Position numbers and translations under genes: made by a program
Source: Lentisphaerota bacterium
GTDB lineage: Bacteria; Verrucomicrobiota; Kiritimatiellia; RFP12; UBA1067
Assembly: GCA_015061665.1 (NCBI GenBank)
Contig: SUWC01000003.1
Span: forward strand, 23,292 to 87,291
DNA length: 64,000 nt
Reading direction: 5' to 3'
In this document: positions 1,874 to 30,900 of the stretch, in pieces
Numbering within the stretch: the stretch's first letter is position 1
Layout of the letters: each line of letters opens with the position of its first letter
Notes under the pieces: model-generated
What the model saw: the letters and a program-made list of their open reading frames with translations, nothing else
Databases searched by the model: none
Told to the model about the DNA's origin: nothing

Positions 1874-4800
1874 TCAGGACGCGTGCCACTCCTGCAGCGA
1901 GCGAGGAACGGAACCTTTCGCCGACGCGTCGGCCGCGATTCCACGGACAGCCTCGGCGAATCCTGCAAGCGTGGTCGTGACCGGCACGCCTGCGGCAACC
2001 GCCGCCGCGCGGATCTTCACGCTGTCGTGCGCAGCGCTCTCGCCCTCCTCGCGCGTGTTGACGATCCACTTCACCTTGCCGCGCTTTATCAAGTCGATTG
2101 TGTTGGGGCTCCCGAGCGGAATCTTGTAGAGCGCATTCGACTCGACGCCCGCGCGCCAGAGCGCGGTGGAAGTTCCGCGCGTCGCCCATATCTCGTAGCC
2201 CATCGCATCGAGCCGCTTCGCAAGTTCGACGACTTCGCCCTTGTCTTCGTCGCGAACGCAAAGGACGATTCCGCCCTGGCCCGGATGCGGCAGCGGACTC
2301 CCCGCCGCGGCCTGGCTCTTGTAGTACGCCGTCGCCGCGTCGACTCCGAACGACATCACCTCGCCCGTCGACTTCATCTCCGGCGTGAGCGTGATGTCCG
2401 CGCCAGGGAACTTCACGAACGGGAAGACCGCCTCCTTGGCGCAGAAATACGGTTTGGTGGTTTGGTGGTTAGGTAGTTGGGTGGGCAGTTGCTCGCCCGC
2501 CATCACCCGCGACGCCACGCCCGCAAGCGACCAGCCGACAGCCTTCGAGACGAACGGCACGGTGCGCGACGCGCGTGGATTCACCTCGATCATCCATACC
2601 TCGTTGTCTTTAACAGCCAACTGGATATTCATAAGTCCGACGACGTGCAACCGCTCCGCGAAAGTGCGGGCGATGCGTTCGACTTCGGCGATCGTCTCTT
2701 TCGATAGCGATACCGGCGGCGTAACCGCCGCGGCGTCGCCAGAGTGGCAGCCCGCCGCCTCGATGTGCTCGAGAATCGCGCCGACGACTGTCGTCTCTCC
2801 ATCCGACACGCAGTCGACGTCGAGTTCGATGGCATTGGTGAGGAACTTGTCGATGAGGATCGGACGCCCCTCCGATATCTTCACCGCCTCCTCGACGTAT
2901 TCCCTGAGGCGCTCCTCGTGGTAGACGATCGCCATGCCGCGTCCTCCAAGGACGAACGACGGACGCACGAGGACGGGATAGCCGATCTCCTGCGCGATCT
3001 TTAGCGCGTCGTCAACCGTGTGCGCGATGCCGCTCGGCGGCTGCTTCACGCCGACTTCATTCACAAGCGCGCGGAAGAAGTCGCGGTCCTCCGCAAGCGC
3101 GATGTCTTTGGGCGAAGTGCCGAGGATGTTTACGCCCGCCGCTTCGAGTTTTTCCGCGAGGTTGAGCGGGGTCTGTCCGCCGAACTGCACAATCGCGCCG
3201 TCGCACTTCTCGCGCTCGTAGATCTCCATCACGTCCTCGAATGTAAGCGGCTCGAAGTAGAGCTTGTCCGAAGTGTCGTAGTCGGTCGAGACAGTCTCTG
3301 GATTTGAGTTCACCATCACGACCTCGATGCCCATCTTGCGCAGCGCGAACGCGGCGTGGCAGCAGCACCAGTCGAACTCGATGCCCTGTCCGATGCGGTT
3401 CGGCCCCCCGCCCAAGACCATGATCTTCTTTTTGACAGGATTTACAGGATTCACAAGATTAGAAGAATTCGTTGGATGTGGTAATCTTGTAAATCTTGTT
3501 AATCCTGTCGAAAAACCGTAGCAGCTGTAGTAATACGGTGTCTTGGCCTCGAACTCGCCGGCGCAGGTGTCGACTTCGCCGAACTCGGGCCTTATGCCGA
3601 GGGCGAGGCGATTGTTCCGCACCGTAATCTCGTCGGAGCCGATCGCCGCGGCGATTTCCTTGTCGCTGAAGCCGAACACCTTGGCTTGGCGAAGGAGCAA
3701 GCTTGCTTCACGGTCTTTTTCGACAGGATTAACAAGATTTACATGATTATCTTTACTCATCAATCCTGTTAATCCTGTAAATCCTGTCAAAAGATTCTTC
3801 TGGCTCGCCAAGAACTTTCTGAACGCTTCGATTTCTTCGAGCTGCGCCCTGAACCACGGATCGAAGCTCGCGACGTCGTGTCCGGCGAGCGGCGCCTCGA
3901 GCGAGCGGACTGCCTTGAGGTATGCCTGCTTGAAGGTGCGTCCGATTGCCATCGCCTCGCCCACGGACTTCATTTGCGTGCCGAGGCGCGTGTCCGCTCC
4001 GTGGAACTTCTCGAAGGTGAAGCGCGGCACCTTGACTACGACATAGTCGAGCGCCGGCTCGAAGCAGGCGGGCGTAACTTCGGTAATGTCGTTCTTCAGC
4101 TCGTCGAGAGTATAGCCCACGGCGAGAAGGGCGGCGATCTTCGCGATCGGGAAGCCCGTCGCCTTCGAGGCGAGCGCGGAGGAGCGCGAGACGCGTGGAT
4201 TCATCTCGATGATGATGCGCCGCCCCGTCTTCGGATTGACGGCCCACTGGACGTTCGAGCCGCCCGTCGCAATTCCGATCGCCTCCAGGACGCGGATCGA
4301 GTCGTCGCGCATCGCCTGGTATTCGCGGTCGGTAAGTGTCTGTATCGGCGCGACGGTTATCGAGTCGCCGGTATGGACGCCCATCGGATCCATGTTCTCG
4401 ATGGAGCAGACGATTACGGCGTTTCCCGCCTTGTCGCGCATCACTTCCATCTCGAATTCCTTCCAGCCGATGAGAGACTCCTCGACAAGGACCTCGTGGT
4501 TGAGCGACGCCTCGAGCCCGCGCGAGACGATTTCGCGGAACTCGTCTGCGTCGTGCGCGATTCCGCCGCCAGTTCCGCCGAGGGTGAAGCCAGGACGGAT
4601 GATTAGCGGCCATGTGCCGATATCCTTTGCGATCGCTTCCGACTCTTCGAGCGAATGTGCGCTCCCCGATTTAGGCATGTCAAGTCCGAGCTTGCCCATC
4701 GCCGCCTTGAAGAGATTGCGGTCCTCCGCACGGGCTATCGCGTCAGCATCCGCGCCGATCATCTCGACGCCGCATTCTTCGAGGACGCCGGAGCGCTTCA

Positions 4801-5101
4801 GCTCCATCGCGAGGTTGAGCGCGGTCTGTCCGCCGAGCGTCGGGAGGAGCGCGTCCGGCTTTTCCTTTCGGATGATCGCCGAAACCGAATCGACGGTAAG
4901 CGGCTCGATGTATGTCGCCTCGGCCATTTCCGGATCGGTCATCACCGTCGCGGGGTTGGAGTTCACGAGGACGATTTCGTATCCTTCCTTGCGCAGGGCC
5001 TTCACGGCCTGGCAGCCGGAGTAGTCGAACTCGCATCCCTGTCCGATGACGATCGGACCCGATCCGATGACAAGTATCTTCTTCAAATCAGTGCGTTTCA
5101 T
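1874..5101 (-). CDS. carB: Carbamoyl-phosphate synthase large subunit, with 3 in-frame repeat insertions
   Basis: Motifs [54 protein letters not shown]. Start MKRTDLKK at 5101. Confidence 0.98.
3429..3515. repeat. Family A palindrome, in frame in carB
   Basis: TTTTTGACAGGATTTACAGGATTCACAAGATT...AATCTTGTAAATCTTGTTAATCCTGTCGAAAAA. Confidence 0.95.
3716..3792. repeat. Family A palindrome, in frame in carB
   Basis: Encodes [25 protein letters not shown]. Confidence 0.95.
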
Positions 5102-6923
5102 TTTTCTTTTCCTTAAGTGCGGTCGAGACGAGGCCGACAAACAGAGGATGCGGCGCGGTCGGGCGGGATTTGAACTCGGGGTGGAACTGGCATGCGATGA
5201 AGTAAGGATGCTTCGACTGCGGAAGTTCTACAATTTCGACGAGCTTGCCGTCGGGGGATGTTCCGCTGACCACCAGCCCCGCGGCCTCAAGCGCCTTCCT
5301 TGCCTCGCTGTCGTATGCGAGTTCGTAGCGGTGGCGATGTCGTTCGGAGATAACACCTGCGGAGTTGTTTTGTTTGACAGGATTTACAGGATTAACAGGA
5401 TTGAGTGTCTGGGGGATATCCCCAGGTAATCCTGTAAATCTTGTTAATCCTGTCAAAACTATTTTATAGAGCTTTGCGGCTAGGGTGCCTTTCTTGAGAA
5501 TGCATGGATAGGCGCCCAGGCGCATCGTGCCGCCTTTCTGCGTGATGCCGCGCTGCTCCTCCATAAGGTCGATGACGGGGTGCGTCGTACGTTCGTCGAA
5601 CTCCGTCGAGTTGGCGTCCTTCCATCCGAGCACGTCGCGCGCGTATTCGATCACCGTGCACTGCATCCCGAGGCAGATGCCGAGAAATGGGATCTTGTGC
5701 TCGCGCGCGTACTTTATCGCGGCGATCTTTCCCTCGACGCCGCGCGCACCGAATCCACCAGGCACCAAAATGCCGTCGATATCCCTCAGCGGATTGTTTT
5801 TGACAGGATTAACAAGATTTACATGATTAGAAGACTTCGCCAATCCTGTTAATCCTGTAAATCCTGTCTCCAACTCCTCGGATTCAACAGGAACAACTTC
5901 TACTTTGCAGTCCTTTGCCATGCCTGCGTGCTGGAGCGCTTCGTGCACCGACTTGTAGGCGTCGCGGATGGCGATGTACTTTCCGACGAGCGCGATGCGG
6001 CACTTCTTCTTCGGCTGCGTCGCCTTTCGCACGAGAGTGTCCCACACCGTGTGCTTTATGGGCCAGATGTCGAGGTGGAGATGGCGCAGAACCTGCTCGT
6101 CGAGCCCCTGCTTCCGGAGCTCCCGCGGCACGGCGTAAACGGAGTCCGTCACGTCCTTCTCCTCGATGACGCATTCGCGCTTCACGTTGCAGAAGAGCGC
6201 GAGCTTCTGGAGATGCTCCTCCGGAATCGTCATCTCGGTGCGGCAGACGAGGATGTCGGGAATGATGCCGATGTTGCGCAACTGTCCGACGGAATGCTGC
6301 GACGGTTTTGTCTTGAGCTCGCCCGCCGCCTTGAGATACGGGACGAGCGTGAGGTGCACGAAGCACGCGTTCTCGGATCCGACCTCGAAGCGGAACTGCC
6401 GCGCCGCCTCGAGGAAGGGGAGCGACTCGATGTCGCCGGAAACGCCGCCTATCTCGCAGAGGACGATGTCGGGAGGGTCGGGCTCTGTCCCGACCATGGC
6501 CGACACGGAGGTCGGCCCTCCCATGCCCGCGCTCCTGATCGCCGCCTTGATCTCGTCCGTTATGTGCGGCACGACCTGCACCGTTCCGCCGAGGTATCCA
6601 CCTGCGCGTTCGCGCGCGAGGACTGCGGAGTAGATGCGCCCTGAGGTGTAGTTCGACGCCTTCGTGCAGGTGACGCCGGCGAACCGCTCGTAGTGTCCGA
6701 GATCGAGGTCCGTCTCCGCGCCGTCGTCCGTCACGAACACCTCGCCGTGCTGGTACGGGGACATCGTGCCGGGGTCGACGTTGAGGTATGGGTCGAGCTT
6801 CTGCATGAAGACCTTGTAGCCGCGCGACTTGAGGAGAAGCGCGAGCGAGGCCGAGGTGATTCCCTTGCCGAGCGAGCTTACGACGCCGCCGGTGATGAAA
6901 ACGTATTTGACTTGTTTTTTCAT
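5088..6923 (-). CDS. pyrG: CTP synthase, with 3 in-frame repeat insertions
   Basis: Motifs [40 protein letters not shown] at 6923 overlaps the carA stop. Confidence 0.98.
5373..5458. repeat. Family A palindrome, in frame in pyrG
   Basis: Encodes [28 protein letters not shown]. Confidence 0.95.
5797..5868. repeat. Family A palindrome, in frame in pyrG
   Basis: Encodes [23 protein letters not shown]. Confidence 0.95.
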
Positions 6924-8200
6924 GGCTTGCTGGTTGTGGCTAGTGCCATTTCCCTGAATTGGCGGAAGAGGTAGTTCGAGTCGTGCGGGCCGGGGCAGGA
7001 CTCGGGGTGGTACTGCACCGAGAAGGCGGGGAGAGTCTTGTGGCGGATGCCCTCGATCGAATTGTCGTTGAGGTTTACGTGCGTCACTTCCAGGCAGTCC
7101 GGAACCGACTCGGGCACGACGGCGAAGTTGTGGTTCTGGCTGGTGATCTCGACCTTGCCCGTCGCGAGGTTCTTCACCGGATGGTTGCAGCCGTGGTGCC
7201 CGAACTTGAGCCGCGCCGTCTTCGCGCCGCATGCGAGCGCGAGCAGCTGATGCCCAAGGCAGATTCCCATGATGGGGATGATTCTGTTTTTGACAGGATT
7301 TACAGGATTAACAGAATTTGGGTTTTGAGGGGTTGCCCCAGATAATCCTGTAAATCTTGTTAATCCTGTCGAAAAAGACCTTAGTCCGAGGAACTTCTGA
7401 ATATTCTCGATTGCGTATGTCACTGCCGCGGGATCGGCCGGACCGTTGGATAGAAAGACGCCGTCGGGATTCATCGCGAGGACATCCTCGGCGGGAGTCT
7501 TCGCTGGAACGACCGTGACCTTTGCCCACGACGCGAGCGAGCGGAGGATGTTTGTCTTTACGCCGAAGTCGTAGCAGACGATGTGGGGCAAGGACTTCGG
7601 ACTTAAGGCTTCAGACTTCTGTTTTCGAAGTCCGAGGTCCGAAGTCTGAAGTCTAAACTCGTAACTCTTCTCGCAAGTCACCTTGGCGGCGTAGTCCTGT
7701 CCGTCAAGACCCTCCCATTCTCGCGCCTTGGCTATTGCCTCATCTTCCCCATTCCCCGTTCCCCATTCCCCAACACACAAATACGCCTTCCGGTTGCCGT
7801 GCTCGCGGAGGTGCAGCGTGAGCGCGCGCGTGTCCACGCCGTAGATGCCGGGGATGCCATTCTCGCGGAGATATTCGTCGAGGCTCTTTTCGCTGCGCCA
7901 GTTGCTGGGCTCGGTCAGATCGGCTATTACTAGTCCAGACAGAAAAAGGGCGCGTCTTTCAGTGTCCGCGCTGTTTACTCCGTAGTTGCCGACTTCGGCT
8001 GTCGTGAGGGTGACGAACTGTCCGGCGTAGGATGGGTCGGTAAGTATCTCCTGGTAGCCCGTCATGCCGGTGTTGAACACGACCTCGCCAAGAGTGTCCT
8101 TCTTCGCGCCGAACGCGACGCCGTGGAAGACCGTTCCATCGTCCAGTGCAAGGAACGCCGCCCTTTCGCGCTCCGCTTTCCATTTCTTCTCGTAGTTCAT
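6920..8200 (-). CDS. carA: Carbamoyl-phosphate synthase small subunit, with 3 in-frame repeat insertions
   Basis: Motifs [47 protein letters not shown]. Confidence 0.98.
7287..7376. repeat. Family A palindrome, in frame in carA
   Basis: Encodes [29 protein letters not shown]. Confidence 0.95.
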
Positions 8201-8215
8201 TTAATTTGCTCCATA

Positions 8216-10165
8216 TTAGTAAGATCTTTCATTCCTCTTGTCCAGGTAGTTCTCTAGCGCCTTGTGGAGAACCTTGTATCCGCCCGGCGTCGGGTAGTCG
8301 CCGGTGAAGTACCAGTCGCCGATGGAACTTGAAAGGACTTCTGACTTCGGACTTCCGACTTCCATTGCCGAGGTCGGATGTCCGAAGCCCGAAGTCAGGC
8401 ACCTTCTGAGATCCTCGACGGTCTGATACACCACTTTCACCTCTGCCTTCATCCCGGGAGGGGTGAGAAGGCGCGCGATTTCCGCACAGTGCTGCTCCTC
8501 GGTAAAGCGAGAATAGAGGGGAGCAAGTGGATTCAACTGGGGACGGCGTGCGCGGCGCGCCCGCCCTACCAGTGCTTCGCTCAATTCCCGCTCCCCGCTC
8601 CCCGTTCCCCGTTCCCCATTCATAAGATTGACGAGGGCGCGGAACGCGACGAGCTCGCCGAGCGTGGACATGTCGATGCCGTAGCAGTCGGGGTAGCGGA
8701 TGGGCGGCGCGGAGGATGCGATGACGATGCGCTTCGGTCCAAGCCGATCGAGCATCGGGAGAATCGCGTTCTTCATCGTGTTGCCGCGCACGATCGAATC
8801 GTCAAGGACGACGAGCGTGTCATTCTCCTTGACGAGTCCGTACGTGACGTCGTAGACGTGCTTGTAGAACTCGCGCCGCGCCGCGGCGTCCGCGATGAAC
8901 GTGCGGAACTTCGCGTCCTTCACTATCACCTCGCCGAAGCGGGGGATGCTTTTGACAGGATTTACAGGATTTACAAGATTTTTGGGGTCTGGGGGCATGC
9001 CCCCAGATAATCTTGTCAATCCTGTTAATCCTGTCGCAAAAACACGGGAGAAAAGTTCTTCCAGCAATCCGTGGAAGGCGATGCGCGCGGAGTTGGGGAT
9101 GTAGCTGAAGAAGATGTCCTCCATCGTCGCGTCCGCCGCCTCGAGTATGCGCGGCAGGAGCGCCGCGCCGAGCGCCTTGCGCTCGCGGTGGATGTCGGCG
9201 TCGTTCGCGCGGGAGAAATAAATTCTCTCGAACGAGCAAGGGCGAGGACGAGCATTGATGTCCGAACTCAGTTCGGACATCTGGACTTCGCCATCCGGCG
9301 AGACGACAAGCACCTCGCCCGGCGGCAGCTCCTTCACCGCCTCGGGCGGGACGTCGAACGCGGCCTGTATCGCGGGGCGCTCGCTCGCGACGACTACGAC
9401 GCGCTCGTCGATGTAGTAGAAGCCCGGCCTTATGCCGTTCGGGTCGCGCGTCGCGAACGCCCAGCCGTCCCCCGTCGCGCCGCAGAGCGTCCATGCGCCG
9501 TCGGCGTTCTTCAATGCATTTGCAAGGGCGTCGGCAACGGGAGGGCCGGGCTCTGTCCCGGCCGCGGCCGACACGGAGGTCGGCCCTCCCAGTTCCTTCG
9601 CGATCAGCTCGCAGATGAGGTAGCCGTCGGCCCTGCTCGTCGGAAACGATCCGTGTCGCGCGTAGTCGTCGAATAGCTCGTGCGCGTTCGTTAGGTTGAA
9701 GTTGCCTGCGAGAAGGAGCGTATGGGATAGCTCGCTTGACTCGTGCACGAACGGATGACAGAACGCCACGTCGTTTTTACCGAACGTGGCGTAGCGAAGA
9801 TGGCCGAGGAAAATCCTCTCAAATCTTGTGTGGACAGGATTTACAAGATTTACAGGATTTTGGGGGGCTGATGCTGTGCTCACAGATAATCCTGTCAATC
9901 CTGTCTGAACCTTACACCGCTTCGTCAGCATCCCCAACAGATCTGCAAGAGGTGTAGCGGAGGCGGACTTGGCGATCCAGTATGGCGTTTTGCCTGGCTC
10001 GGGATTGGCCGAGAGTATCGCCGCGCCCGCACCGTCCTGTCCGCGGTTGTGTTGTTTTTCCAGTAGAAGCGAAAGCTTCGTTCCGCCAAAGTCCGCCGTA
10101 GACGACGGTGGCTTTCTAAGGACCACCATCGCCACGGCGCATTCATGCTTTAGTTCGTCTGACAT
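8216..10165 (-). CDS. purF: Amidophosphoribosyltransferase (PurF family), with 6 in-frame repeat insertions
   Basis: MSDELKHEC propeptide/Ntn Cys, QHNRGQDGAG, GHLRYAT, CSFERIYF, PRT motif VLDDSIVRGNT, PDCYGIDM, FTGDYP. Confidence 0.9.
   Translation of the reverse strand: MSDELKHECAVAMVVLRKPPSSTADFGGTKLSLLLEKQHNRGQDGAGAAILSANPEPGKTPYWIAKSASATPLADLLGMLTKRCKVQTGLTGLSVSTASAPQNPVNLVNPVHTRFERIFLGHLRYATFGKNDVAFCHPFVHESSELSHTLLLAGNFNLTNAHELFDDYARHGSFPTSRADGYLICELIAKELGGPTSVSAAAGTEPGPPVADALANALKNADGAWTLCGATGDGWAFATRDPNGIRPGFYYIDERVVVVASERPAIQAAFDVPPEAVKELPPGEVLVVSPDGEVQMSELSSDINARPRPCSFERIYFSRANDADIHRERKALGAALLPRILEAADATMEDIFFSYIPNSARIAFHGLLEELFSRVFATGLTGLTRLSGGMPPDPKNLVNPVNPVKSIPRFGEVIVKDAKFRTFIADAAARREFYKHVYDVTYGLVKENDTLVVLDDSIVRGNTMKNAILPMLDRLGPKRIVIASSAPPIRYPDCYGIDMSTLGELVAFRALVNLMNGERGTGSGERELSEALVGRARRARRPQLNPLAPLYSRFTEEQHCAEIARLLTPPGMKAEVKVVYQTVEDLRRCLTSGFGHPTSAMEVGSPKSEVLSSSIGDWYFTGDYPTPGGYKVLHKALENYLDKRNERSY
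8950..9036. repeat. Family A palindrome, in frame in purF
   Basis: Encodes [28 protein letters not shown]. Confidence 0.95.
9833..9905. repeat. Family A palindrome, in frame in purF
   Basis: Encodes [24 protein letters not shown]. Confidence 0.93.
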
Positions 10166-10181
10166 TTCACGTCACTAACCA

Positions 10182-12311
10182 TTAGTACAGAAACAACATG
10201 TCGCGGTACTTCGGGAGCGGCCAGCGCGCGTCGGAGACGCGCTTCTCCATTGCGTCCACCGTAGTGCGAAGCGCCTTCATGGACGAAAGTATCTCGCCTT
10301 CGGCTGCTTCCGCGCACGCGGCCCTTCCGAGCGCGTCCTCGAGTTTGCCGATCTCGTTCCTGAGCGCGTCAAGCCCGGCACCGAGTTCGACGACGTTCTC
10401 GCGCAGCGCCAAGGTTCCTGACGCGATCCCCGCCTTGCCCGCCTTGCTGAACGCCTCGAGCGACTCGAGGTACTCCGCCTTGACGGCAGGGAAGATCATC
10501 TCGGACGCGATGTCGCGCGCGCATGCGCCTTCGATCCTGACTTTCTTCGCGTATTCCTCGAGGAAAATCTCGTGGCGGCTTTCGAGCTCGCGCTTCGTCA
10601 TGACGCCGAATTTCTCGAAGAGCGCCGCATTCTCGGGCTTTGCGAGCGCGGCGAGCGCGGAAGGCGTATCCGGCGCGTTGGGCAGTCCCCTTTTCTCGGC
10701 TTCCTTCGGCCACTCGGCCTCGTATCCGTTGCCGTTGAACACGACGCGCTTGTGGGCCTTGAGCGACGACTGAAGGACCTTCTGCAGGGTGTCGTGGAAC
10801 CTGGCAGTGTGCTCGCCTGGCTTGATTGAAGCGACGAACGACTCCCCTCCAAGCTCCTTCTCCAGCTCGCACGCTATGCGGTCGACGGATTCCGCGACGA
10901 TCGTGTTGAGCACGGTCATGGGACCCGAACAGCAGACGCTTGAGCCAGGCGCGCGGAACTCGAACTTATTTCCGGTGAACGCGAACGGCGACGTGCGGTT
11001 GCGGTCCGTCGCGTCCTTCGGCAGCGGCGGCAGGGTGTCCACGCCTATCTTCAGCGTGTCAGCCTTCTTTGCCTCGCCTGCGACGCCGCTCTCGATGCGG
11101 TCGACGACTTCTGCGAGCTGGTCGCCGAGGTAGATAGAGATCACTGCTGGCGGCGCTTCGTTAGCTCCGAGGCGATGGTCGTTGCCTGCGCCTGCGACGG
11201 AGGCGCGCAGGAGGTCCGCATGCTTGTCGACGGCTTCAATGACTGCGCAAAGGACCGTGAGGAAGACGGCGTTCTCGTGGGGATTGGTGCCGGGGTCGAG
11301 CAGGTTCTTGCCGCCATAGGCGACGGACCAGTTGTTGTGCTTGCCCGAGCCGTTGACCCCTGCATACGGCTTCTCGTGGAGCAGGCACTTGAGCCCGTGC
11401 TTCTCCGCTACGCCCCTGAGCGTGTCCATGACGAGCATGTTGTGGTCCGAGGCGAGGTTGAGTTCCTCAAACTGCGGCGCAAGCTCGAACTGCGCGGGCG
11501 CGACCTCGTTGTGGCGCGTTTTCGCCGGTATGCCGAGCTTCCAGAGATCCTTCTCGACGTCGTTCATGAACGAGAGCACGCGGTCGGGGATCGTTCCGAA
11601 GTAGTGGTCTTCGAGCTGCTGGCCCTTCGCGGACGGCGCGCCGAAGAGCGTTCGGCCCGTGAGGACGAGGTCGGGACGCTTCTTCCAGTATTCCTTGTCC
11701 ACGAGAAAGTACTCCTGCTCCGCGCCGAGCGTGCACGCCGAATGCGCCTCGGGGCGGCCGAACAGCTTCATGAGCCTCTTCAGCGACTTGTCCAGCGCCT
11801 GCATGGAACGGAGAAGCGGTGTCTTCTTGTCGAGCGATTCGCCGGTGTACGCGCAGAACGCGGTAGGGATGCACAAGGTCGCGCCGTTCGAGTGGCGCTT
11901 GATGAACGCAGGGGAAGTCGGATCCCACGCCGTGTAGCCGCGCGCCTCGAAGGTGGAGCGGATGCCGCCCGACGGGAACGAGCTCGCGTCCGGCTCGCCG
12001 ACGATGAGGTTCTTTCCGCTGAACTGCATGATAGGTTCGCCGTCCTTGAGCTCAAGGAACGAGTCGTGCTTTTCGGCCGTAGAGCCGGTCATGGGAAGGA
12101 ACCAGTGCGTGTAGTGAGTCGCTCCGCGGTCCATCGCCCAATGGCGGATTCCATGCGCGACCTCGCCCGCGATTGACGGATCAAGCGGCTTGCCTTCCCG
12201 AATCGTCGCCTGCAGCTTCTTCGCCGTATCCTTGCTCAGATATGTCTGTATCGCCTCTTCGCCGAACACGTCGGCGCCAAAGTCTGTCGCCTTCTTTGTC
12301 TCTTCAGTCAT
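10182..12311 (-). CDS. glnA: Glutamine synthetase type III
   Basis: Motifs THYTHWFLPMTGSTAEKHD, EPDASSFPSGGIRSTFEARGYTAWD, HEKPYAGVNGSGKHNNWS, DRNRTSPFAFTGNKFEFR. Confidence 0.97.
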   Translation of the reverse strand: MTEETKKATDFGADVFGEEAIQTYLSKDTAKKLQATIREGKPLDPSIAGEVAHGIRHWAMDRGATHYTHWFLPMTGSTAEKHDSFLELKDGEPIMQFSGKNLIVGEPDASSFPSGGIRSTFEARGYTAWDPTSPAFIKRHSNGATLCIPTAFCAYTGESLDKKTPLLRSMQALDKSLKRLMKLFGRPEAHSACTLGAEQEYFLVDKEYWKKRPDLVLTGRTLFGAPSAKGQQLEDHYFGTIPDRVLSFMNDVEKDLWKLGIPAKTRHNEVAPAQFELAPQFEELNLASDHNMLVMDTLRGVAEKHGLKCLLHEKPYAGVNGSGKHNNWSVAYGGKNLLDPGTNPHENAVFLTVLCAVIEAVDKHADLLRASVAGAGNDHRLGANEAPPAVISIYLGDQLAEVVDRIESGVAGEAKKADTLKIGVDTLPPLPKDATDRNRTSPFAFTGNKFEFRAPGSSVCCSGPMTVLNTIVAESVDRIACELEKELGGESFVASIKPGEHTARFHDTLQKVLQSSLKAHKRVVFNGNGYEAEWPKEAEKRGLPNAPDTPSALAALAKPENAALFEKFGVMTKRELESRHEIFLEEYAKKVRIEGACARDIASEMIFPAVKAEYLESLEAFSKAGKAGIASGTLALRENVVELGAGLDALRNEIGKLEDALGRAACAEAAEGEILSSMKALRTTVDAMEKRVSDARWPLPKYRDMLFLY

Positions 12312-12352
12312 TGTCGCGTTTTCCTTTCCGGGGCTTTCCCCGCAGAGCATGT

Positions 12353-12369
12353 AGCACACTCCGTGCCAA
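12353..12369 (-). promoter_or_regulatory. Sigma54 (-24/-12) promoter of the glnA-purF-carA-pyrG-carB run
   Basis: TTGGCACGGAGTGTGCT on the minus strand, with exact GG-N10-GC spacing, about 40 bp above the glnA ATG. Confidence 0.8.
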
Positions 12370-12614
12370 AGGCGTCCAAACGCAGCTTCAACGGAAATAT
12401 ATCGTTTTCTCCACCCCATCCTGACATTTTTTTGTCGAAAAGCAGGCAGTTCGTTACAAAAATTGTAATTGGCTGGTGGGATGCTGCCATAGACTCAAGC
12501 TATGGTTCGTCGAGCATGTTTCCGATTACCACTTCACCCGCCGGATTTGCGATAATGTCTGTGTTGTCCCCGCTCCACAAATCCCCACCCGGAGCGGGGC
12601 AACCTAACTGAACC

Positions 12615-16538: not shown

Positions 16539-16606
16539 TTAGACAGGATTCACAGGATTTACAAGATTTTAGGACAATCCTGTTAATCATGTAAATCCTG
16601 TCAAAA
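16539..16606. repeat. Family A palindrome, intergenic between glnK and amtB
   Basis: GACAGGATTCACAGGATTTACAAGATT...AATCCTGTTAATCATGTAAATCCTGTC. Confidence 0.95.
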
Positions 16607-18837: not shown

Positions 18838-18879
18838 TCTTACCTATATCTGGGCCGCGTTAAAAAGCGACGTAAGCGT

Positions 18880-21711: not shown

Positions 21712-21808
21712 GCTTGACGCTCCTGATCAGTTCCCGAACTATGGCTTGCCTGCGGGTGCTCACCCGAAGACATTCATACTATAGCAAAACCGCCACGCTT
21801 GAGTCAAG
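21712..21808. repeat. Direct repeat of about 97 bp, copy 1 (promoter plus leader); copy 2 at 22521-22617
   Basis: GCTTGACGCTCCTGATCAGTTCCCGAACTAT...CATACTATAGCAAAACCGCCAC occurs on both sides of the toxin-antitoxin pair. Confidence 0.9.
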
Positions 21809-21825
21809 TGCGGCGGTTTGGAGAT

Positions 21826-22517: not shown

Positions 22518-22520
22518 CTG

Positions 22521-22617
22521 GCTTGACGCTCCCGATCAGTTCCCGAACTATGTCTTGCCTGCGGGCTCTCGCCCGAAGACATTCATACTATAGCAAAACC
22601 GCCACTGTAGAGTCAAG
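22521..22617. repeat. Direct repeat of about 97 bp, copy 2; contains a sigma70-like TTGACT...TATAGT promoter on the minus strand
   Basis: Near-identical to 21712-21808. Confidence 0.9.
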
Positions 22618-22708
22618 GGTTGAGGTTTATTTGAGCAATTTACCGTACCCATGCAATACGCCCGAGTATAATTTACGTATTATGTAACAAATGGCAACGT
22701 TTCGGCAG

Positions 22709-22724
22709 TGGCACGTGAAATGCA
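22709..22724 (+). promoter_or_regulatory. Sigma54 promoter upstream of nadE
   Basis: TGGCACGTGAAATGCA, with GG-N10-GC spacing. Confidence 0.65.
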
Positions 22725-22772
22725 TACAAAATCAAAAGCAAGACAACTGTCCACTAGAGATGGAGGCAAGCT

Positions 22773-23918
22773 ATGAATGGATTCTTCAAAATTGCAGCGG
22801 CGACGCCGCGGCTGAACCTGGGCGATCCAGCGGCTAATGCAAAGGAACTCGCGCGCATCGCGAAGGAAGCCGCAAAGGACGGCGCTGCGGCCATCGTCTT
22901 CCCCGAACTGTGCCTTACGGGATACACGTGCGGCGATATGTTCTTCCGCGAAGAGCTGCTCCAGGCCGCGTCCGATTCCGCGAACGCATTCGCCGCGAAG
23001 ACCGCAAAGCTCCCAATCGTCTCCATCGTCGGGCTGCCCATTGCCGAAGGCGCGGCGATATACAATGCCGCTGCTGTCGTTCACGGAGGGAAAATCGTCG
23101 GCATTGTGCGAAAGCGCGCGCTCCCGAACTACGGCGAATACTACGAGCGCCGCCAGTTCACGCCTGCGCAAGCCGACGAACCAGTCACCGTGTTCGACGT
23201 CGGCGGATTCAGGTTCGGTGTCGAGATATGCGAAGACCTATGGACGCCTATTCCCCCAAGTTCACTGATGGCCGGCGAAGGCGTGGACATGATTTTCAAT
23301 CTTTCGGCAAGCACGGATTTCCTCGGCAAGTCGCAGAAGCGGAAATCCCTCGTAGAACAGCAGAGCCTGCGACTCGGCTGCGCATACGCAATGGCATGCG
23401 CGGGAACGGGCGAATCGAGTTCGGACGCAGTGTTCGGCGGCGGATCGCTTATTGCGGCCGAGGGCAAGACAGTCGCCGAAATAAAGCTTTTCAGCGGTTC
23501 GCCGAAAATCGTCGCGGCAAACGTAGACGTCTCCGCGATGCGGCACAGAAGGCGAAGCTCGTCGTCGGTCTACTGCGCACATTCCGTGCTGGGTGCGCAG
23601 CGCCGCGTTGTGTCTCTTCCTGTCAACCTTCCAGATTCCGCGCCTACAGATGTCTCCCGCTCTCCGTTCCTCGATGAATACGGAGAGGACCGCTGGTGGA
23701 GCAAAATCTTGGACATACAGTCCGCCGGACTCGCAAGGCGAATGGCGAGTGCTGTCGCCGGAAAGCTCGTCATAGGAGTTTCGGGCGGAGCGGACTCCGC
23801 GCTCGCTTCCTCGGCTCCGCAAGGGCAGCCGCCTACCTCAAGCTCGCCTCCGCCTTTATGCTCGCGGCGGTGTCGCTTGTCCTTCTCATGCAGGTCAGGC
23901 TCCCCTGACTGGGCATAG
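22773..23918 (+). pseudogene. nadE: Glutamine-dependent NAD synthetase, truncated just after the SGGxDS motif
   Basis: Nitrilase domain (FPELCLTGYTCGD, LPNYGEYYERRQF, EICEDLW), then GVSGGADSALA, then unrelated sequence. Most of the synthetase domain is missing. Confidence 0.85.
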
Positions 23919-24015
23919 GCTTTTCCTATTCCCGTTTGCGTTTATTTCCGATTACCAGTTGCTTCCTGCGATGTGCGATAATATTGCCGTTGAACCAAAA
24001 GAAAGGAACGCAACC

Positions 24016-24897
24016 ATGAACAAGATCAACAGCAGCAACATCGTCCGCACCATAGCCGCAGCAGCAACAGTCGTCGGAATCGCTTCCGCCGCCCATGCAG
24101 GGGTTCCGCTGAACAACCTGCAAGGTTCGGGAGGCATCGCCTTCAACCCGCTGGCGTATACATCCGGTCTGCCGTGGGACGGAGGCGATACGAACGCCCT
24201 CAACGACATCGTCAGCAGGCCCCAGGTCGGCGCGTGGTACGTGAACCTAAACGACGCGGACATCAACTGGTACGCGGGGTCTGCGTCGCTCACGCTCTTC
24301 AAGCGCCTCGAAATCTCATACGGCTACGGGTTCATAAACGCGCACCGCTACGGGGACAAGTCCATCGAGACGCACAACGTCGGCGCCAAGCTTCGCCTTC
24401 TCGACGAGAACGCCTTCGACACGTCGTGGCTCCCCGCCATCGCAGTCGGCGGCGTCTGGAAGTACACCGACTCGAAGACCGTTGACGCGCTCAATCTTGA
24501 CGACAACGGATTCGACGCGTACGTCGTCGCCTCCAAGCTCGTCACCCAGACTCCCGTCCCAGTGCTTCTCTCCGCAGGCCTACTCTACACGGACGAAGTG
24601 GTGAACGGCGTTGTCGGACACAACCACTACGACCTCGTCGCGTTCGGCAACATCGACATCCTTCCCGCCGAGAACGTCGCAATCGGCTTTGAGTACAAAC
24701 AGGGTGCGCGCGTCGGGGACGGAATCCGCAACCACGACTACTACGACGGACACGTCGCCTGGTTCGTCAACAAGAACCTGACGCTCGTCGCGGCCTTCGC
24801 CGAAACAGGAGACAAGGACAAGTTCACGCGCGACGGCTCCACCAAGAACCTCGGCGTCGGCTCTGGCCTCGTGCTAAGCGTCCAGTACCAGTTCTAA
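24016..24897 (+). CDS. DUF3034-like outer-membrane protein
   Basis: Signal peptide, GSGG near the N-terminus, PAIAVGG, beta-strand pattern ending SVQYQF. Confidence 0.6.
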
Positions 24898-24917
24898 CCC
24901 TATCATCGGAGAGAGAA

Positions 24918-25790
24918 ATGAACGACAGGCAGGAACTGAACCGCAATCTCGCGCAAATGCTCAAGGGCGGCGTGATAATGGACGTCACGACGCCCGAGCA
25001 GGCGAAGATCGCCGAGCAGGCCGGCGCATGCGCGGTGATGGCTCTTGAACGCATACCCGCCGACATACGTGCGGCGGGAGGCGTCTCGCGCATGAGCGAC
25101 CCTGCGATGATCAAGGGCATACAGGCGGCGGTGTCGATTCCGGTTATGGCGAAGTGCCGCATCGGACACATCGCCGAGGCGCGCATCCTGGAAGCGATCG
25201 AAATCGACTACATCGACGAGTCGGAGGTGCTTTCCCCCGCCGACGACGTGCGCCACATCGACAAGAACAAGTTCAGCGTTCCGTTCGTCTGCGGCGCACG
25301 CGACCTCGGCGAGGCTCTTCGCCGCATCGGGGAGGGCGCGACGATGATCCGCACGAAAGGCGAACCGGGGACGGGCGACGTCGTGCAGGCCGTTAGGCAC
25401 ATGCGCAAGATGCAGAGCGAGATTCGCCGCGTCGTGTCGCTCCGCGAGGACGAGCTCTACGAGGCGGCGAAGGAACTTGCCGCGCCGCTCGACCTCGTCA
25501 GGTTCGTACACGAGAACGGCAAGCTCCCCGTCGTGAACTTCGCGGCAGGCGGAGTCGCGACGCCCGCGGACGCCGCGCTCATGATGGAGCTGGGGGCTGA
25601 AGGCGTGTTCGTGGGCTCGGGAATCTTCAAGTCGGGCGATCCCGCGAAGCGCGCTTCCGCAATCGTGCAGGCCGTCACGAACTGGCAGGACTCGAAGCTT
25701 CTCGCGAAGCTCTCCGAGAACCTCGGCCCCGCGATGGTAGGCATCAACGCCGACGAAATCGAAACCATCATGGAAGAGCGAGGGAAGTAG
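24918..25790 (+). CDS. pdxS: Pyridoxal 5'-phosphate synthase lyase subunit
   Basis: Motifs [41 protein letters not shown]. Confidence 0.97.
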
Positions 25791-25791
25791 C

Positions 25792-25866
25792 TTTTTGACA
25801 GGATTTACATGATTTACAGGATTGTTGGTGGTTCATACTAATCTTGTGAATCCTGTTAATCCTGTC
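25792..25866. repeat. Family A palindrome, intergenic between pdxS and pdxT
   Basis: TTTTTGACAGGATTTACATGATTTACAGGATT...AATCTTGTGAATCCTGTTAATCCTGTC. Confidence 0.95.
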
Positions 25867-25885
25867 TGAAAACTGGTATGACGAG

Positions 25886-26440
25886 ATGAGAGTAGGTGTG
25901 TTATCTGTTCAGGGGGCGTTCGCCGAGATGGCGGCGCACTGGCGCGCGCGATGCGCGGAAGTGTTCGAGATCAGGCAGCTCGCCGATCTCGAACGCGCCT
26001 TCGATCTGCTCGCACTCCCAGGAGGCGAGTCGACGGTGCAGGGAAAGCTGCTGAAGGATCTGGGGCTCTTCGGTCCGCTCAAGGCTAAGATCGACGGCGG
26101 ACTTCCCGTGTACGCGACATGCGCGGGGTTAATACTCCTTGCAGAGAAAATAGACGATCCGGGGCGGCGCGACGACACACGACCCGAGATGTGGTTCGGC
26201 ACACTTCCCGTCGAAGTCAGGCGCAATGCCTACGGACGCCAGCTCGGCAGCTTTGTGACGGTCGGCACGTTCGACGGCAAACCGGGCGTTCAGATGACAT
26301 TCATCCGCGCGCCTGCGATCACCTCCGTCTTGTCGCCCGAAGTAAAGGTCCTTTCAACGTTCAACGGCTCGCCAACCTCCGTCCGCTGGCGAAACATTAC
26401 CGCCTTCACCTGGCATCCCGAGCTTACCGGTTGTCCCTAA
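25886..26440 (+). CDS. pdxT: Pyridoxal 5'-phosphate synthase glutaminase subunit
   Basis: Motifs PGGEST, TCAGLILLA, RNAYGRQLGSF, FIRAP, HPELT. Confidence 0.95.
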   Translation: MRVGVLSVQGAFAEMAAHWRARCAEVFEIRQLADLERAFDLLALPGGESTVQGKLLKDLGLFGPLKAKIDGGLPVYATCAGLILLAEKIDDPGRRDDTRPEMWFGTLPVEVRRNAYGRQLGSFVTVGTFDGKPGVQMTFIRAPAITSVLSPEVKVLSTFNGSPTSVRWRNITAFTWHPELTGCP

Positions 26441-26535
26441 GCCGTCAATGCGCGACGTTACAAGATTACAACCGCATAACCGAGAGAGATTACAAAAACT
26501 GTAAAAAGGTGAGCGGATAGACGTGGTTTTGCCCT

Positions 26536-26552
26536 TTGGCATAGGTTGTGCT
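26536..26552 (+). promoter_or_regulatory. Sigma54 promoter of gltD-gltB
   Basis: TTGGCATAGGTTGTGCT, with GG-N10-GC spacing. Confidence 0.78.
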
Positions 26553-26566
26553 AAGTTGCATCCGAT

Positions 26567-27946: not shown

Positions 27947-27958
27947 AGGACTAAGGAC

Positions 27959-30900
27959 ATGAACCAGCAAGCCAAATACGAACAGCAAGGGCTCTACAGG
28001 AGCGAATACGAACACGATGCGTGCGGCGTCGGAATGGTCGCAAACCTCTCCGGCGAGGCGAGCCACGACATTGTCCAGAAGGGAATGACGATTCTCAAGC
28101 GCCTGATGCACCGCGGCGCGACGGGGAACGATCCGGAGACTGGCGACGGCGCAGGGCTCCTCATGAAGATTCCGCATGCGTTCTTCAGGAAGGCTTTAGC
28201 CGCAAAGAACGCAAAGAACGAAGAGCCATTCGCCGTCGCGATGATCTTCGGCGGAGAAGGCGAAGAGGACAAGATCGAGGCGGCCGTCAAGGGCGAGGGG
28301 TGCAAGGTCCTCGCATGGCGCGACGTTCCGACAAACCCCGACGCGATCGGACGCGACGCGCGCAGCGTAATGCCGCGGATAAGGCAGGTGTTCATCGGGA
28401 CTTCAGACTTCGGACCCAAGACTTCTGCTGCTGACGTCCAATGTCTGAAGTCCGAAGTCTCTTCCTTCGAACTTCAACTCTACGTCATCAGACGCCTGAT
28501 AGAGAAAAACACCAAGAACACATACGTCTGCTCCTGCTCGTCGCGCACCGTCGTCTACAAGGGGCTTCTTCTTGCGACTCAGATCGAGAAGTTCTACCCC
28601 GACCTCTCCGACCCCGACTTCGTCTCGCCGTTTGCAATAGTGCACCAGCGCTACTCGACGAACACCTTCCCGTCGTGGGAGCTCGCGCACCCCTTCCGCG
28701 CAATCGCGCACAACGGCGAGATCAACGCGCTCAAGGGCAACCTCAACGCTCTTGCGGCGCGAGAGCCGTCGCTCAGGTGGCCGGAAGCGGGGCGGCCGGA
28801 GTCCGCCCCCTACCAGGTGGACCTTAAGAAGATTCTGCCGCTGATCGACAAGGGGCAGTCCGACTCGGCTTCGCTGGACAACATCTTCGAGCTCCTGGTA
28901 GCGGCGGGACGCGACGCGCCGCACGCGATGATGATGCTCGTCCCGCAGGCGTGGGGCAGGAAATACCACATGGGACACGACGTGCGCGCGTTCTACGAGT
29001 ACCACTCCGCGCTGATGGAGCCTTGGGACGGACCGGCCGCGCTCGCCTTCACCGACGGCATCAGCCTCGGTGCCGCCCTCGACCGCAACGGGTTGCGCCC
29101 TGCCAGGTGGACGCTTACAAGGGACGGCCTTTTCGTCCTCGCGTCGGAAACAGGCGTGCTTGACATCGCGCCCGAAAACATAGCGCGCCACGGCAGGCTG
29201 AAGCCCGGTTCGCTTCTCTGGCTCGACCTCGCGAAGCACCGCCTGATGGAGGACGCCGAGCTCAAGACGTACTGCGCGCGCCGCAGACCATACCGCCGCT
29301 GGGTGAAGGAGAACCACATCCCCGTCACGGGACTATTCACCGAAATCGTGCCGTCGAAATTGGGGAATGGGGAATGGGGAATGGGGAATGGGATTGCACG
29401 CGAACAAAACCGCTTTGGCTGGACGCTGGAGGACATCGAGCTAATTCTCCGCCCGATGGCGGAAACGGGACACGAACCGGTTGGCGCGATGGGAAACGAC
29501 GCCGCGCTTGCGGCGCTCTCACGCAAGCCGCGCATTCTCTTCGACTACTTCCACCAGCTCTTCGCTCAGGTCACGAACCCGCCGATCGATCCGATCCGCG
29601 AGGAACTCGTGATGTCGATCATGACCTACATCGGAAACGAGGGGAACATACTCGCCGAGACTCCGGCGCACGCTCGTCTCGTGAAGATGACGCGACCGGT
29701 CCTGACCGACGACGAACTCGCGCGACTCAGGAACATCCCCGATTTCCCTGCGAAGACGCTTTCAATGTGCGTCGGGGAATGGGAAACTGGGAATGGGGAA
29801 CCGGGGTGGCTGAAGGCCGCGCTTGACAGGCTTGCCGCCGACGCGATTGAAGCAGTGAAGGAAGGCGCGAAGATAGTTATCCTTTCCGATAGGAAATTGC
29901 TTTCGCCGCTGGGAGATAAGGAGACTAGGAGTTTGGGAGATTCTGAGGAAAGATCTCCAAGTCTCCCAAACTCCAAAACTCCAAGTAGCGAAAGCAAAAA
30001 GCGAATCCCGTCCCTCCTCGCGGTTGCCGCGGTGAACAAGGCGCTCGTCGAAGCGGGGGCGCGTCCGTCAGTCGGCATCATCGTTGAATCCGGCGAGGTG
30101 CGCGAAGTGCACCACTTCGCCGTCCTGCTCGGCTTCGGCGCAACGGCCGTCAACCCGTGGCTTGCCCTTGCGACAGTATCCGAGATCGGGAAGTCCGACA
30201 CAGTGAAGGCAGCTGCGAACTACGTGTCCGCAGTCTGCAAGGGCCTGATGAAGATCATGTCGAAGATGGGCATCTCGACACTGCGCTCCTACCGCTCGGC
30301 GCGCATCTTCGAGGCCGTCGGCCTCGGTCCGAAGATCGTCGCCGAGTATTTCACCGGCGTCACATCGCCCGTGGGCGGACTGGAGCTGGAGGATATCGAG
30401 AAGATAGCTGGAGTGAAAAGTTGGAGTTCGAGAAATGAAGAAAACAACTCCACTCTCGAACTCCAACTCGAAACTCCAACTCTCCCTCCCGGCGGCGAGT
30501 ATCGCTTCCGCAAGGGCGGCGAGGAGCATCTCTGGTCTCCGCAGCGGCTCGTCGACTTCCGCGAGTCCGTGCGCCACAATGACTACGCGCGCTTCCACCG
30601 CTATACCGACGACATTGACTCCAATAGCCATGTCACATTGAGATCTCAACTGGAATTTAAGAGTTCGACAGGATTTACAGGATTGGAAAGCGTAAACAAT
30701 CCTGATAATCCTGTAAATCCTGTCAAAAACAACATCGAGTCCGTCGACTCCATAGTGAAGCATTTCGTTGGCGGGGCGATGTCGCTCGGCTCGCTTTCCC
30801 CTGAGGCGCACGAGACGATCGCGCTCGCGCTGAACGGACTCAGCACGATGTCCAACTCCGGCGAAGGCGGCGAAAACCCAGAGCGCTTCGGCACGGAAAA

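Follow-up and report, generated by a model that had tools for sequence, protein, structure and literature searches.

The window analysed here is a stretch of 64,000 nucleotides from the draft genome of a Lentisphaerota bacterium (GenBank assembly GCA_015061665.1, contig SUWC01000003.1, positions 23,292 to 87,291 of the forward strand). The genome, denoted G000, comprises 3.44 Mb in 177 contigs, has a G+C content of 59.8% and is 92% complete. The beginning of the window is occupied by an operon of carB, pyrG, carA and purF-like genes and further genes of nitrogen metabolism (Table 1; the open reading frames, ORFs, were named by NCBIfam and Pfam matches). Ten copies of a short palindromic repeat, here called family A, are found in this region, eight inside ORFs, all of which remain open, and two between genes. 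In other genomes the arms of the same palindrome enclose a nuclease gene. Below, C-numbers denote contigs of G000, other G-numbers stand for related genomes, and L-numbers for the loci fetched.

A family A copy consists of two or three tandem 9-mers, (ACAGGATTW)2–3, a short spacer, and the inverted array (AATCCTGTW)2–3. The 9-mer ACAGGATTW has 29 exact matches in the window, whereas 100 dinucleotide shuffles averaged 0.48 and never exceeded 4, and all 29 fall into ten clusters. These are the ten copies listed in a first-pass annotation made from the letters alone; when each of them was rebuilt with one mismatch per 9-mer unit allowed, all were recovered at the same places, with two to three units per arm. 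The inserts span 66–87 nt by window coordinates, or 56–93 bp if counted between the outermost units. Runs of T and A, noted earlier as the usual termini, flank six copies on both sides and three on one side, and are absent from one copy.

In nine copies the spacer length equals 1 modulo 3; the spacer of the 9829 copy was not scored, since extra upstream units blur the offset, and its host-frame translation runs on unbroken. Thus the left arm in its ACA-GGA-TTW reading and the right arm in its AAT-CCT-GTW reading stand in one frame in all ten copies. The spacers had been described as different in each copy, which is literally so, but they are not unrelated. A hairpin core GGGGTCTGGGGG..CCCCCAG is common to the copies at 5373, 7287 and 8950 and to two copies elsewhere in the genome (C137:949 and C31:32457), and the segment AGAAGAMTTCG is common to 3429 and 5797. 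The copies at 3716 and 5797 have identical arms and spacers of the same length, 13 nt, with only 4 of the 13 spacer positions matching.

Two more in-frame palindromes in the window are built of 7-mers (GACTTCN / NGAAGTC) and lie in the purF-like gene and in gltB. Farther downstream, a GC-rich near-perfect hairpin (…GGGGGAAGCGGCGTCCCGCCGCTTC…GAAGCGGCGGGACGCCGCTTCCCCC…) yields a sub-threshold Rfam match to a microRNA precursor, 44.9 bits versus the gathering score of 86; it is probably a further repeat family.

Table 1. Family A copies, their host genes and other features of the window, with the state of the same sites in same-genus genomes (GATase, glutamine amidotransferase).
Feature	Position	Strand	Host or context	Spacer (nt)	Remarks	Same site in sister species
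Copy 1	3429..3510		carB paralog, aa 545-569	22		81/82 identical in G018, 70/82 in G008; other repeat families in G013, G003, G012
Copy 2	3716..3790		carB paralog, aa 452-473	13	ACATGATT unit (3723) read NHV	element in G018, G003, G008; empty in G013, G006, G011
Copy 3	5373..5455		pyrG	25	GC hairpin in spacer; RNA fold -43.1 kcal/mol, z -9.7	83/83 identical in G012; empty in G013, G016; other family in G018, G003
Copy 4	5797..5869		pyrG, GATase-domain loop	13	ACATGATT unit at 5803	73/73 identical in G018, 70/73 in G016; other families in G013, G012, G008
Copy 5	7287..7371		carA	25		80/85 identical in G018; other family in G013, G012
Copy 6	8950..9036		purF-like gene	28	RNA fold -49.3 kcal/mol, z -10.3	85/87 identical in G018; other families in G013, G008; empty in G012
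Copy 7	9829..9904		purF-like gene			one extra 9-nt unit in G018 (78 vs 69 nt between flanks); empty in G012
Copy 8	16539..16606		intergenic, upstream of ammonium-transporter ORF	7	stops in all six frames	
Copy 9	25792..25870		intergenic, between pdxS and pdxT	16	stops in all six frames	
Copy 10	30664..30729		gltB	13	read STGFTGLESVNNPDNPVNPV; 2 + 3 units	
7-mer palindrome	8319-8381		purF-like gene			same element in G018; other families in G013, G008; empty in G012
7-mer palindrome	31750-31804		gltB			
Host operon	1874..10165	-	carB paralog, pyrG, carA, purF-like gene		7 of 10 family A copies	
carB paralog ORF (carbamoyl-phosphate synthase large subunit)	1874-5140	-	host operon		2 family A copies	
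pyrG (CTP synthase)	5088-6914/7232	-	host operon		2 family A copies	
carA (carbamoyl-phosphate synthase small subunit)	6920-8200	-	host operon		1 family A copy	
Divergent purF-like class II glutamine amidotransferase (GATase_6)	8216-10165	-	host operon		2 family A copies	
Type III glutamine synthetase	10182-12419		directly after the purF-like gene			
Ammonium-transporter ORF	16625-17920		19 nt downstream of copy 8			
pdxS	24918-25790		beside copy 9			
pdxT	25886-26440		beside copy 9			
gltB (glutamate synthase large subunit)	27959-32605	+			1 family A copy	
GC-rich hairpin	59045-59131				near-perfect	

Reading frame and position in the host proteins

All eight coding copies in the window are read through by an intact host ORF as TG(F/L)…NPV, seven of them on the minus strand and the gltB copy on the plus strand. 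The remaining two frames on each strand hold stops, where TGA comes from TTGACA or ACATGATT, and TAA from GTAAATC. The ACATGATT units at 3723 (carB) and 5803 (pyrG) are indeed oriented as noted in the first-pass annotation: the strand read by the host gives N-H-V, and the opposite reading would give TGA. Both intergenic copies (16543-16601 and 25798-25865), for which a stop in the corresponding frame had been reported, have stops in six of six frames.

Outside the window, four more two-armed copies of G000 are coding, in genes of a major facilitator superfamily (MFS) protein, a zinc-dependent alcohol dehydrogenase (Zn-ADH)/GFO-IDH-MocA oxidoreductase, a metallophosphoesterase and the mannonate dehydratase UxuA. 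The genome-wide tabulation therefore comprises 12 coding two-armed copies (8 + 4), and the host ORF is open in all 12. The proposed rule that coding copies always use the TG(F/L)/NPV frame holds for the window, but not beyond it, as two coding copies elsewhere (C151:85563 and C157:5472) are read DRI…/NPV. The orthologous insert-bearing ORFs of sister species are stop-free. Since two of three frames carry stops, such a frame bias is what survivorship leaves, and it is not evidence of design.

The position of the inserts in the proteins was assessed by sequence alignment to solved homologues only. The CarA insert is situated between residues 259 and 263 of E. coli CarA, right before the strand leading to the catalytic cysteine. 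Both PyrG inserts fall in loops of the GATase domain, and both CarB inserts in linkers that are variable across all orthologues.

We infer, in agreement with the first-pass annotation, that the inserts are translated as 20–30 extra residues, TG(F/L)TG(F/L)…NPVNPV, and each of them probably forms a protruding hairpin loop. The open frames of all coding copies and of their orthologues and the loop positions point to this, as does the gene content: pyrG and carA are represented by one gene each in the assembly. For carB, a second paralog, 50% identical to the window gene, is found on contig C36. As all coding copies are open and both pyrG and carA are single-copy, translation would be the only reading leaving the cell with PyrG and CarA.

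The opposite possibility, that the inserts are cut out of the RNA or skipped by the ribosome, or that the hosts are pseudogenes, has to be considered in view of metatranscriptome contigs. Contigs of two runs, X15 and X17, join over 9814-9929 and exactly over 8318-8382, and those of X17 alone over 8941-9059. However, the RNA contigs over the operon are mostly 90–95% like the window, hence most of them come from relatives, and like skips are seen in DNA: in a public DNA contig of run X6, which joins 5348-5465, the 5373 copy is absent, and in G012 the sites 8319, 8950 and 9829 are empty. As equal skips exist in DNA and the RNA joints are indistinguishable from empty-site strains, they are uninformative on splicing or expression. 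Moreover, either removal or bypass would relax the constraint on frame and stops, whereas all 12 coding copies are open and in frame, and length changes occur in 9-nt steps. The host genes are intact and conserved, pyrG and carA being single-copy. We give hardly any credence to untranslated inserts.

Insert-bearing peptide regions were also searched against a set of 5.8 billion proteins, yielding 42 candidates; because of the word filter, this says little about how common such inserts are. At E ≤ 1 there were 38 of them, namely 28 CTP synthases and 10 others, 9 of the latter with glutamine amidotransferase domains; the three source names given are Kiritimatiellae or Kiritimatiellia.

Turnover at the same loops and spread of the arms

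The flanks of seven window sites were projected onto up to eight same-genus genomes. Three outcomes were observed: an identical or similar element, an empty site, and a different tandem-repeat palindrome (Table 1). Orthologous copies have spacers in common. In the DNA contig of a related strain, the 5797 copy is one 9-nt unit shorter (deletion at 5842); as length changes come in 9-nt steps, the reading frame is kept. The arm families occupying the carB, pyrG, carA and purF-like loops of sister species are those that flank genes of the PDDEXK_3 nuclease family, described in the next section. The glutamine-centred gene set at 1874-12419 is a palindrome-insertion hotspot in every same-genus genome examined.

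The arms are more conserved than the genes around them. While the identity of carB at four-fold degenerate sites between G000 and G008, G016, G003 and G012 is 0.46–0.52, five equal-length element pairs with these genomes (unequal-length pairs were left out) are identical at 59 of 60 third codon positions of the arm cores, with 85/90 at first and 86/90 at second positions. The respective values are 21/25 for W, the ninth base, and 22/31 for third positions of the spacers. The peptide cannot explain this conservation, since ACA, GGA and CCT keep their synonymous base in a genome with 60% G+C. It is due to one of three causes: selection at the nucleotide level, re-copying from a conserved source, or movement of insert alleles between species. 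At that, arms nearly invariant across phyla and conserved at synonymous sites imply a sequence-specific partner.

The arm consensus has about 27 nt, or three 9-mers, G-ACAGGATT-W-ACARGATT-W-ACAKGATT; it is AT-rich and has no internal dyad symmetry. Since position-specific variants recur across phyla, the arm is a conserved sequence of this length and not a product of slippage. The computed hairpins have energies of −25 to −49 kcal/mol (z from −5.6 to −10.3) and are formed by 8-bp helices with a mismatch at each W. The W pairs are complementary in 0 of 22 cases in G000 and in 17 of 62 cases in cross-phylum copies, the latter being about random. The spacer equals 1 modulo 3 in 16 of 31 cross-phylum copies, an unconvincing bias, as 3 of the 16 come from L077, a near-identical relative.

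It had been suggested in the first-pass annotation that the copies arise by de novo assembly or spacer capture and not by simple copying. This could mean templated addition of 9-mers to both ends of a break, or capture of a spacer between pre-formed arms. The pair at 3716 and 5797, with its identical arms and dissimilar spacers, is in line with this, as is the polarity of the arms relative to the flanks, which is the one expected for addition to both 3' ends of a break. However, the spacers fall into sets of similar sequence and orthologous copies inherit them, the arms are a conserved three-unit sequence with the same position-specific variants across phyla, and identical arms enclose a PDDEXK_3 gene in other genomes. 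No reverse transcriptase or similar enzyme is associated with the arms in the ORF clusters of the 120 loci listed. We therefore do not retain the suggestion and consider de novo assembly very improbable.

The genome G000 contains 17 two-armed family A copies and about as many single arms. Ten of the 17 are located in one nitrogen-metabolism region of 27 kb, against about 0.13 expected there if the copies were spread evenly. A pattern of two-and-a-bit arm units is present in 19 of 31 related genomes (14 of 18 from the same genus and 4 of 12 from other families of the order), whereas the same pattern read backwards, used as a control, has no matches in these 31 genomes. In a collection of species-representative genomes, at least 120 loci contain the three-unit arm in its exact form; among the matches listed are Chloroflexota, Verrucomicrobiota, Kiritimatiellia, Syntrophobacteraceae, Bacteroidales, Gammaproteobacteria (including the isolate Thiobaca trueperi), Acidobacteriota and others. 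Family A arms are also present between annotated genes on plasmids of the isolate Spirosoma oryzicola. There is no sign of phages as the main carrier: blastn of a 97-nt family A copy against 50,697 phage records produced no match, and a collection of viral contigs contains only 14 exact arm matches. In the published literature, searched without supplements and most subscription journals, no paper contains any of four 17-mers of the arm, describes the arms or links GxxExxY genes to repeats; searches of the same scope for the intervening-sequence protein and for nucleases of MITEs (transposable elements of the miniature inverted-repeat type) yielded nothing relevant.

The concentration of copies in one region raises the possibility that the hairpins are cis-elements of a nitrogen/glutamine regulon, either RNase III-type sites of mRNA stability or regulator-binding sites. 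The conservation of arm cores at synonymous sites and the very high stability of the RNA hairpins agree with such a role, and half-elements lie between a TATAAT-like box and a ribosome-binding site on C16. On the other hand, sister species keep the operon with these sites empty or filled by unrelated arms. Further copies lie in the unrelated MFS, oxidoreductase, phosphoesterase and UxuA genes, and identical arms are found in unrelated contexts across phyla. The family A unit resembles the CsrA-type RNA site, CAGGAUG; this candidate was dropped, as CsrA (PF02599) has no match in the 92%-complete G000, while control genomes were matched. Scanning the full window against Rfam (E ≤ 1) gave no match at any of the ten copies. 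Neither is the hairpin an intrinsic terminator, since it is followed by A's, not U's, in either orientation. Overall, a regulatory role as the reason for these repeats seems improbable.

The half-elements on C16 are single family A arms at 1783-1808 and 4693-4718 (L008), both in a 5' leader, with a TGGTATAAT-like −10 box on one side and the ribosome-binding site on the other. One arm subfamily has a longer outer end, GTCGCGGGAAGGTTTTTAG, which is also present in G013 and in a Kiritimatiellae metagenome-assembled genome (L041).

Variable defence or toxin-antitoxin cassettes have single arms at their borders. On C121, inverted single arms at 5361-7934 (2362-4935 of L002) bracket the genes of MGMT, a YkgJ-like protein, AbiEi and AbiEii; on a related contig (L050), arms separate genes of a HipA-like protein and a small lipoprotein from the conserved neighbour. 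Two paralogous ORFs, identified by eye as putative glycosyltransferases, read a single arm in the same position as LDRIN(R/K)IDR(V/I)(E/N)W (C113 4667-4683 and C18 56222-56247). Either the arm was there before the duplication, or it has taken the place of a native segment.

The most abundant tandem repeat of G000 is of a different sequence, the 7-mer GGGGAAY/CCCCRTT with at least 50 arrays. It is read as GERGTGNGER-like stretches in a tyrosine integrase (C47, ORF 23779-25137), a phosphoesterase and UxuA (C157, C31). A related 7-mer of the GGGAACA type (GGGAACAGGGAACGGGGAAC) makes up the arms on both sides of a PF05635 gene in G017 (L210).

Nuclease genes between the arms

A nuclease or transposase flanked by the same arms had been proposed as something to look for in the first-pass annotation. 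A nuclease was found, in other genomes, and no transposase. When 3,154 ORFs of 120 cross-phylum loci were clustered all against all, a single small protein recurred beside the arms among the matches listed, namely one of about 125 aa from the PDDEXK_3 family, also named 'GxxExxY protein'. No transposase recurs near the arms in these ORF clusters; the largest unrelated cluster, that of GFO/IDH/MocA oxidoreductases, covers 8 of the 120 loci. In L018 and L043 the nuclease gene is situated exactly between the left and the right family A arms, and the stop-to-stop frame reads TGLTGL…nuclease…NPVNPVNPV. Family A arms also flank PDDEXK_3 genes in G013, G015 and G021, which belong to the same genus or order, and degenerate cases are seen in G012 and G018. 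The loci with such arms are L018, L043/L193, L184 and L194, and in degenerate form L186 and L187. In L129, there are whole palindromes on either side of the nuclease gene.

Tandem-repeat arms are a general feature of this gene family. Of 27 PDDEXK_3 loci from the 31 related genomes, 25 have enough flank to score. The flanking inverted repeats exceed the 95th percentile of the control in 20 of 25 loci and the control maximum in 12, the control being 200 random 340-bp intervals of G000 and not matched small genes. The arms are tandem 8–9-mers of the families CACGAAGG, CACAGAG, CGCGGAG, CGCAAAG, CACGGATT and family A. On the maximum-likelihood tree of 30 nucleases the arm families are clustered: 15 changes are required, compared to the mean of 22.1 for shuffled labels, and none of 200 shuffles was as low. 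Five of the six family-A-armed nucleases form one clade (support 97/98), and the sixth is next to two genes adjoining family A palindromes. Genes of PF05635, the four-helix-bundle '23S rRNA intervening sequence (IVS) protein', are flanked likewise, mostly by 7-mer arms of other sequence; 15 of 20 such loci score at least 11, and 8 of 20 are above the control maximum.

Among 24 nuclease sequences, the residues G-x-x-E-x-x-Y, D67, E77 and K79 show little or no variation. The structural model has a confident PD-(D/E)XK fold (predicted local distance difference test, pLDDT, 93) and resembles Cas4, a restriction-endonuclease-like protein of Spirosoma, the Hjc resolvase and lambda exonuclease, with template modelling (TM) scores of 0.4–0.56. 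None of the solved structures is related to this family in sequence, and neither PADLOC nor PHROGs contains it. In the accessible part of a 2012 survey of the superfamily, the function of PDDEXK_3 is given as unknown, and multiple transfers between divisions are mentioned (PMC3424549).

Some PDDEXK_3 nucleases may be made as C-terminal fusions, judging by the open frames. In L177 (G020:C51, 1495-2685, minus strand), an ORF identified by eye as HisA-like runs through a CACAGAG-type arm into the PDDEXK_3 domain, in an open frame of 397 aa with no ATG between the arm and the domain. Several further PDDEXK_3 matches reside in open frames of 220-1011 aa.

The arms of the window copies are the 27–30-nt sequences that enclose nuclease genes in other genomes, which fits the copying of a mobile element together with gene-less derivatives. 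We suggest the following scenario. Family A would be a selfish, non-autonomous palindromic repeat, whose full cassette form encloses the gene of the PD-(D/E)XK nuclease. Its copies would land widely, selection leaving those that fall in tolerant surface loops and in the stop-free frame, and the 9-nt period would make later slippage harmless. The arm-specific GxxExxY nuclease could mobilise or homogenise the copies in trans, possibly by cutting at the arms or at an extruded cruciform, after which host repair would copy or paste the element. The same loops might be re-occupied because few sites tolerate inserts, or because existing palindromes attract new ones. The family A copies would thus be gene-less, MITE-like members of a class of nuclease mini-cassettes, with the arm-specific nuclease as the helper. 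We lean, with modest conviction, towards this chain as a whole, and hold its first half with more confidence.

Several observations weigh against this scenario. The PDDEXK_3 ORF is present in only 5 of the 120 loci listed, and few per cent of family A arm pairs adjoin a nuclease gene. Recognition or cutting of the arms by the nuclease rests on correlation, namely on tree clustering and conserved catalytic residues, and the clustering could as well mean that arms and gene travel together. All three PDDEXK_3/GxxExxY genes of G000 have arms of other families, so that the family A copies of this genome may be stranded, and present-day mobility is unsupported there. Single arms also border the unrelated AbiE, HipA and MGMT cassettes, hence the arms could be generic junction modules, the nuclease being one cargo of several. 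Comparison of filled and empty sites does not allow a target-site duplication or an exact boundary to be defined, the flanks being hypervariable linkers, and the T-run and A-run at the insert ends may belong to the palindrome. The short element of G000 on C16 matches a second short element of G013 and not the L184 cassette of that genome; thus the origin by internal deletion is not directly supported. The clustering of 10 of 17 copies in the nitrogen-metabolism region is unaccounted for by a mobile cassette, as is the presence of other arm families in this operon in related genomes, and translation is argued from open frames, single-copy hosts and loop positions only. Finally, the 5373 copy is identical in the distant G012, yet the closer G018 has another family at this site, so the conservation of arms could in part reflect recent allele exchange; the similarity of the flanking 60-nt bins is not unusual. 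This patchy distribution at 5373 favours some turnover or exchange.

Some of these points would be expected if the palindrome were the primary mobile or recombination module, served by another enzyme or by host recombination, and the GxxExxY nuclease, like the IVS protein, had merely lodged in its spacer. Most copies are gene-less, single arms border unrelated cassettes, PF05635 genes have analogous arms, and L129 contains whole palindromes on both sides of the nuclease gene. However, neither a transposase nor any other recurrent gene is enriched near the 120 cross-phylum arms listed, the best unrelated family reaching 8 of 120, and the nuclease subfamily tracks the arm family, which an unspecific passenger would not need to do. 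Further, the transposase-like Y1 genes of G000 have no family A arrays nearby. Such a primacy of the palindrome is in our opinion unlikely, though worth keeping in mind.

Two other links were tried and rejected. For a link to transposases associated with repetitive extragenic palindromic (REP) sequences, the RAYTs, five Y1_Tnp-like matches were found in G000, none with family A arrays within 1.5 kb. Integrons, CRISPR and iterons were judged on architecture, and no integrase, cas or replication gene recurs near the arms.

Implications and comparison with known systems

Family A points to widespread, undescribed selfish DNA, and there is a substantial chance that the cassette class itself is new. 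The coding-palindrome behaviour is now seen in a free-living gut bacterium of the PVC (Planctomycetes–Verrucomicrobia–Chlamydiae) group, in its sole CTP synthase and sole CarA. The arms being those of GxxExxY/PDDEXK_3 nuclease cassettes provides a candidate helper gene, and different arm families in the same loops of sister species make the choice of insertion sites and their turnover directly testable. If the link between nuclease and arms is true, this is a new small mobile element and offers selfish DNA a way of adding loops to essential enzymes; it would also explain where some of the low-complexity peptides come from that are recurrently annotated as 'hypothetical' in metagenomes.

More broadly, family A might be the tip of a pan-bacterial class of mini-cassettes, in which a GxxExxY/PDDEXK_3 nuclease (with 8–9-mer arms) or an IVS protein (with 7-mer arms) lies between co-evolving inverted arrays, and gene-less palindromes colonise and replace each other in tolerant loops of essential proteins and rRNA. 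We offer this generalisation tentatively, as possible rather than probable. If it holds, new surface loops are continuously written into core enzymes, two large 'unknown' protein families acquire a function, and rRNA intervening sequences acquire an origin.

Among known elements, MITEs are likewise small, gene-less and multi-copy, have inverted-repeat ends, form hairpins and occasionally make in-frame fusions with host ORFs. Unlike for a MITE, no cognate DDE or other transposase with family A ends was found in the loci listed; the only gene between the arms is that of PDDEXK_3, so that the gene-bearing relative encodes solely a PD-(D/E)XK nuclease of about 125 aa, which is not a known transposase type.

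The IVSs are rRNA inserts that RNase III excises. They and family A are stem-forming inserts with inverted ends, located at tolerant tips of an essential gene product, and both may carry a small ORF. However, family A lies in the coding sequence of mRNA and would have to be translated. The genes of the IVS protein, PF05635, are flanked by inverted tandem-repeat arms, as are the GxxExxY genes, but mostly by 7-mers of other sequence.

[quoted passage not shown] They form tandem 25-residue domains of surface proteins and not single hairpin inserts in housekeeping enzymes, and have no sequence relationship to family A.

REP sequences and REPINs, as far as covered by the accessible part of PMC3733652, share with family A the inverted conserved units around a variable spacer, the non-autonomous character and a single-gene helper located elsewhere. 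At that, REP units are GC-rich hairpins with a GTAG or CGTC tag, while family A arms are AT-rich tandem 9-mers. The REPINs are extragenic and species-specific (PMC3733652), whereas family A is also coding and crosses phyla.

The closest parallel is provided by the Rickettsia palindromic elements (RPEs; Ogata et al. 2000). In the accessible parts of PMC1779305 and PMC10969869, these are described as elements of 100–150 bp confined to the Rickettsiales, and in-frame coding palindromes are treated largely as a Rickettsia curiosity. Both RPEs and family A are short palindromes residing between genes as well as in frame within metabolic genes that are unrelated to each other and in many cases essential; they presumably owe their tolerance to a position at the protein surface, form several lineage-specific families and, as far as these sources go, have no known transposase. 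Family A agrees with the RPEs in being an intergenic and intragenic palindrome with an open host frame and a loop position, the latter by alignment. It is shorter, 56–93 bp, has arms of three 9-mers, comes from a gut bacterium of the Kiritimatiellae type, and its arms are found in many phyla. Since the taxon, length and arm structure differ, in a comparison by description and not by sequence, we do not file family A as an RPE. Its arms also enclose a PD-(D/E)XK nuclease gene, and no gene-bearing form is given for RPEs in these parts of the two sources. Functionally, family A is the Rickettsia RPE phenomenon in another phylum, and differs from the RPE picture in that the element is a different and far more widespread one, has a candidate helper gene, and is repeatedly exchanged for others in the same loops.

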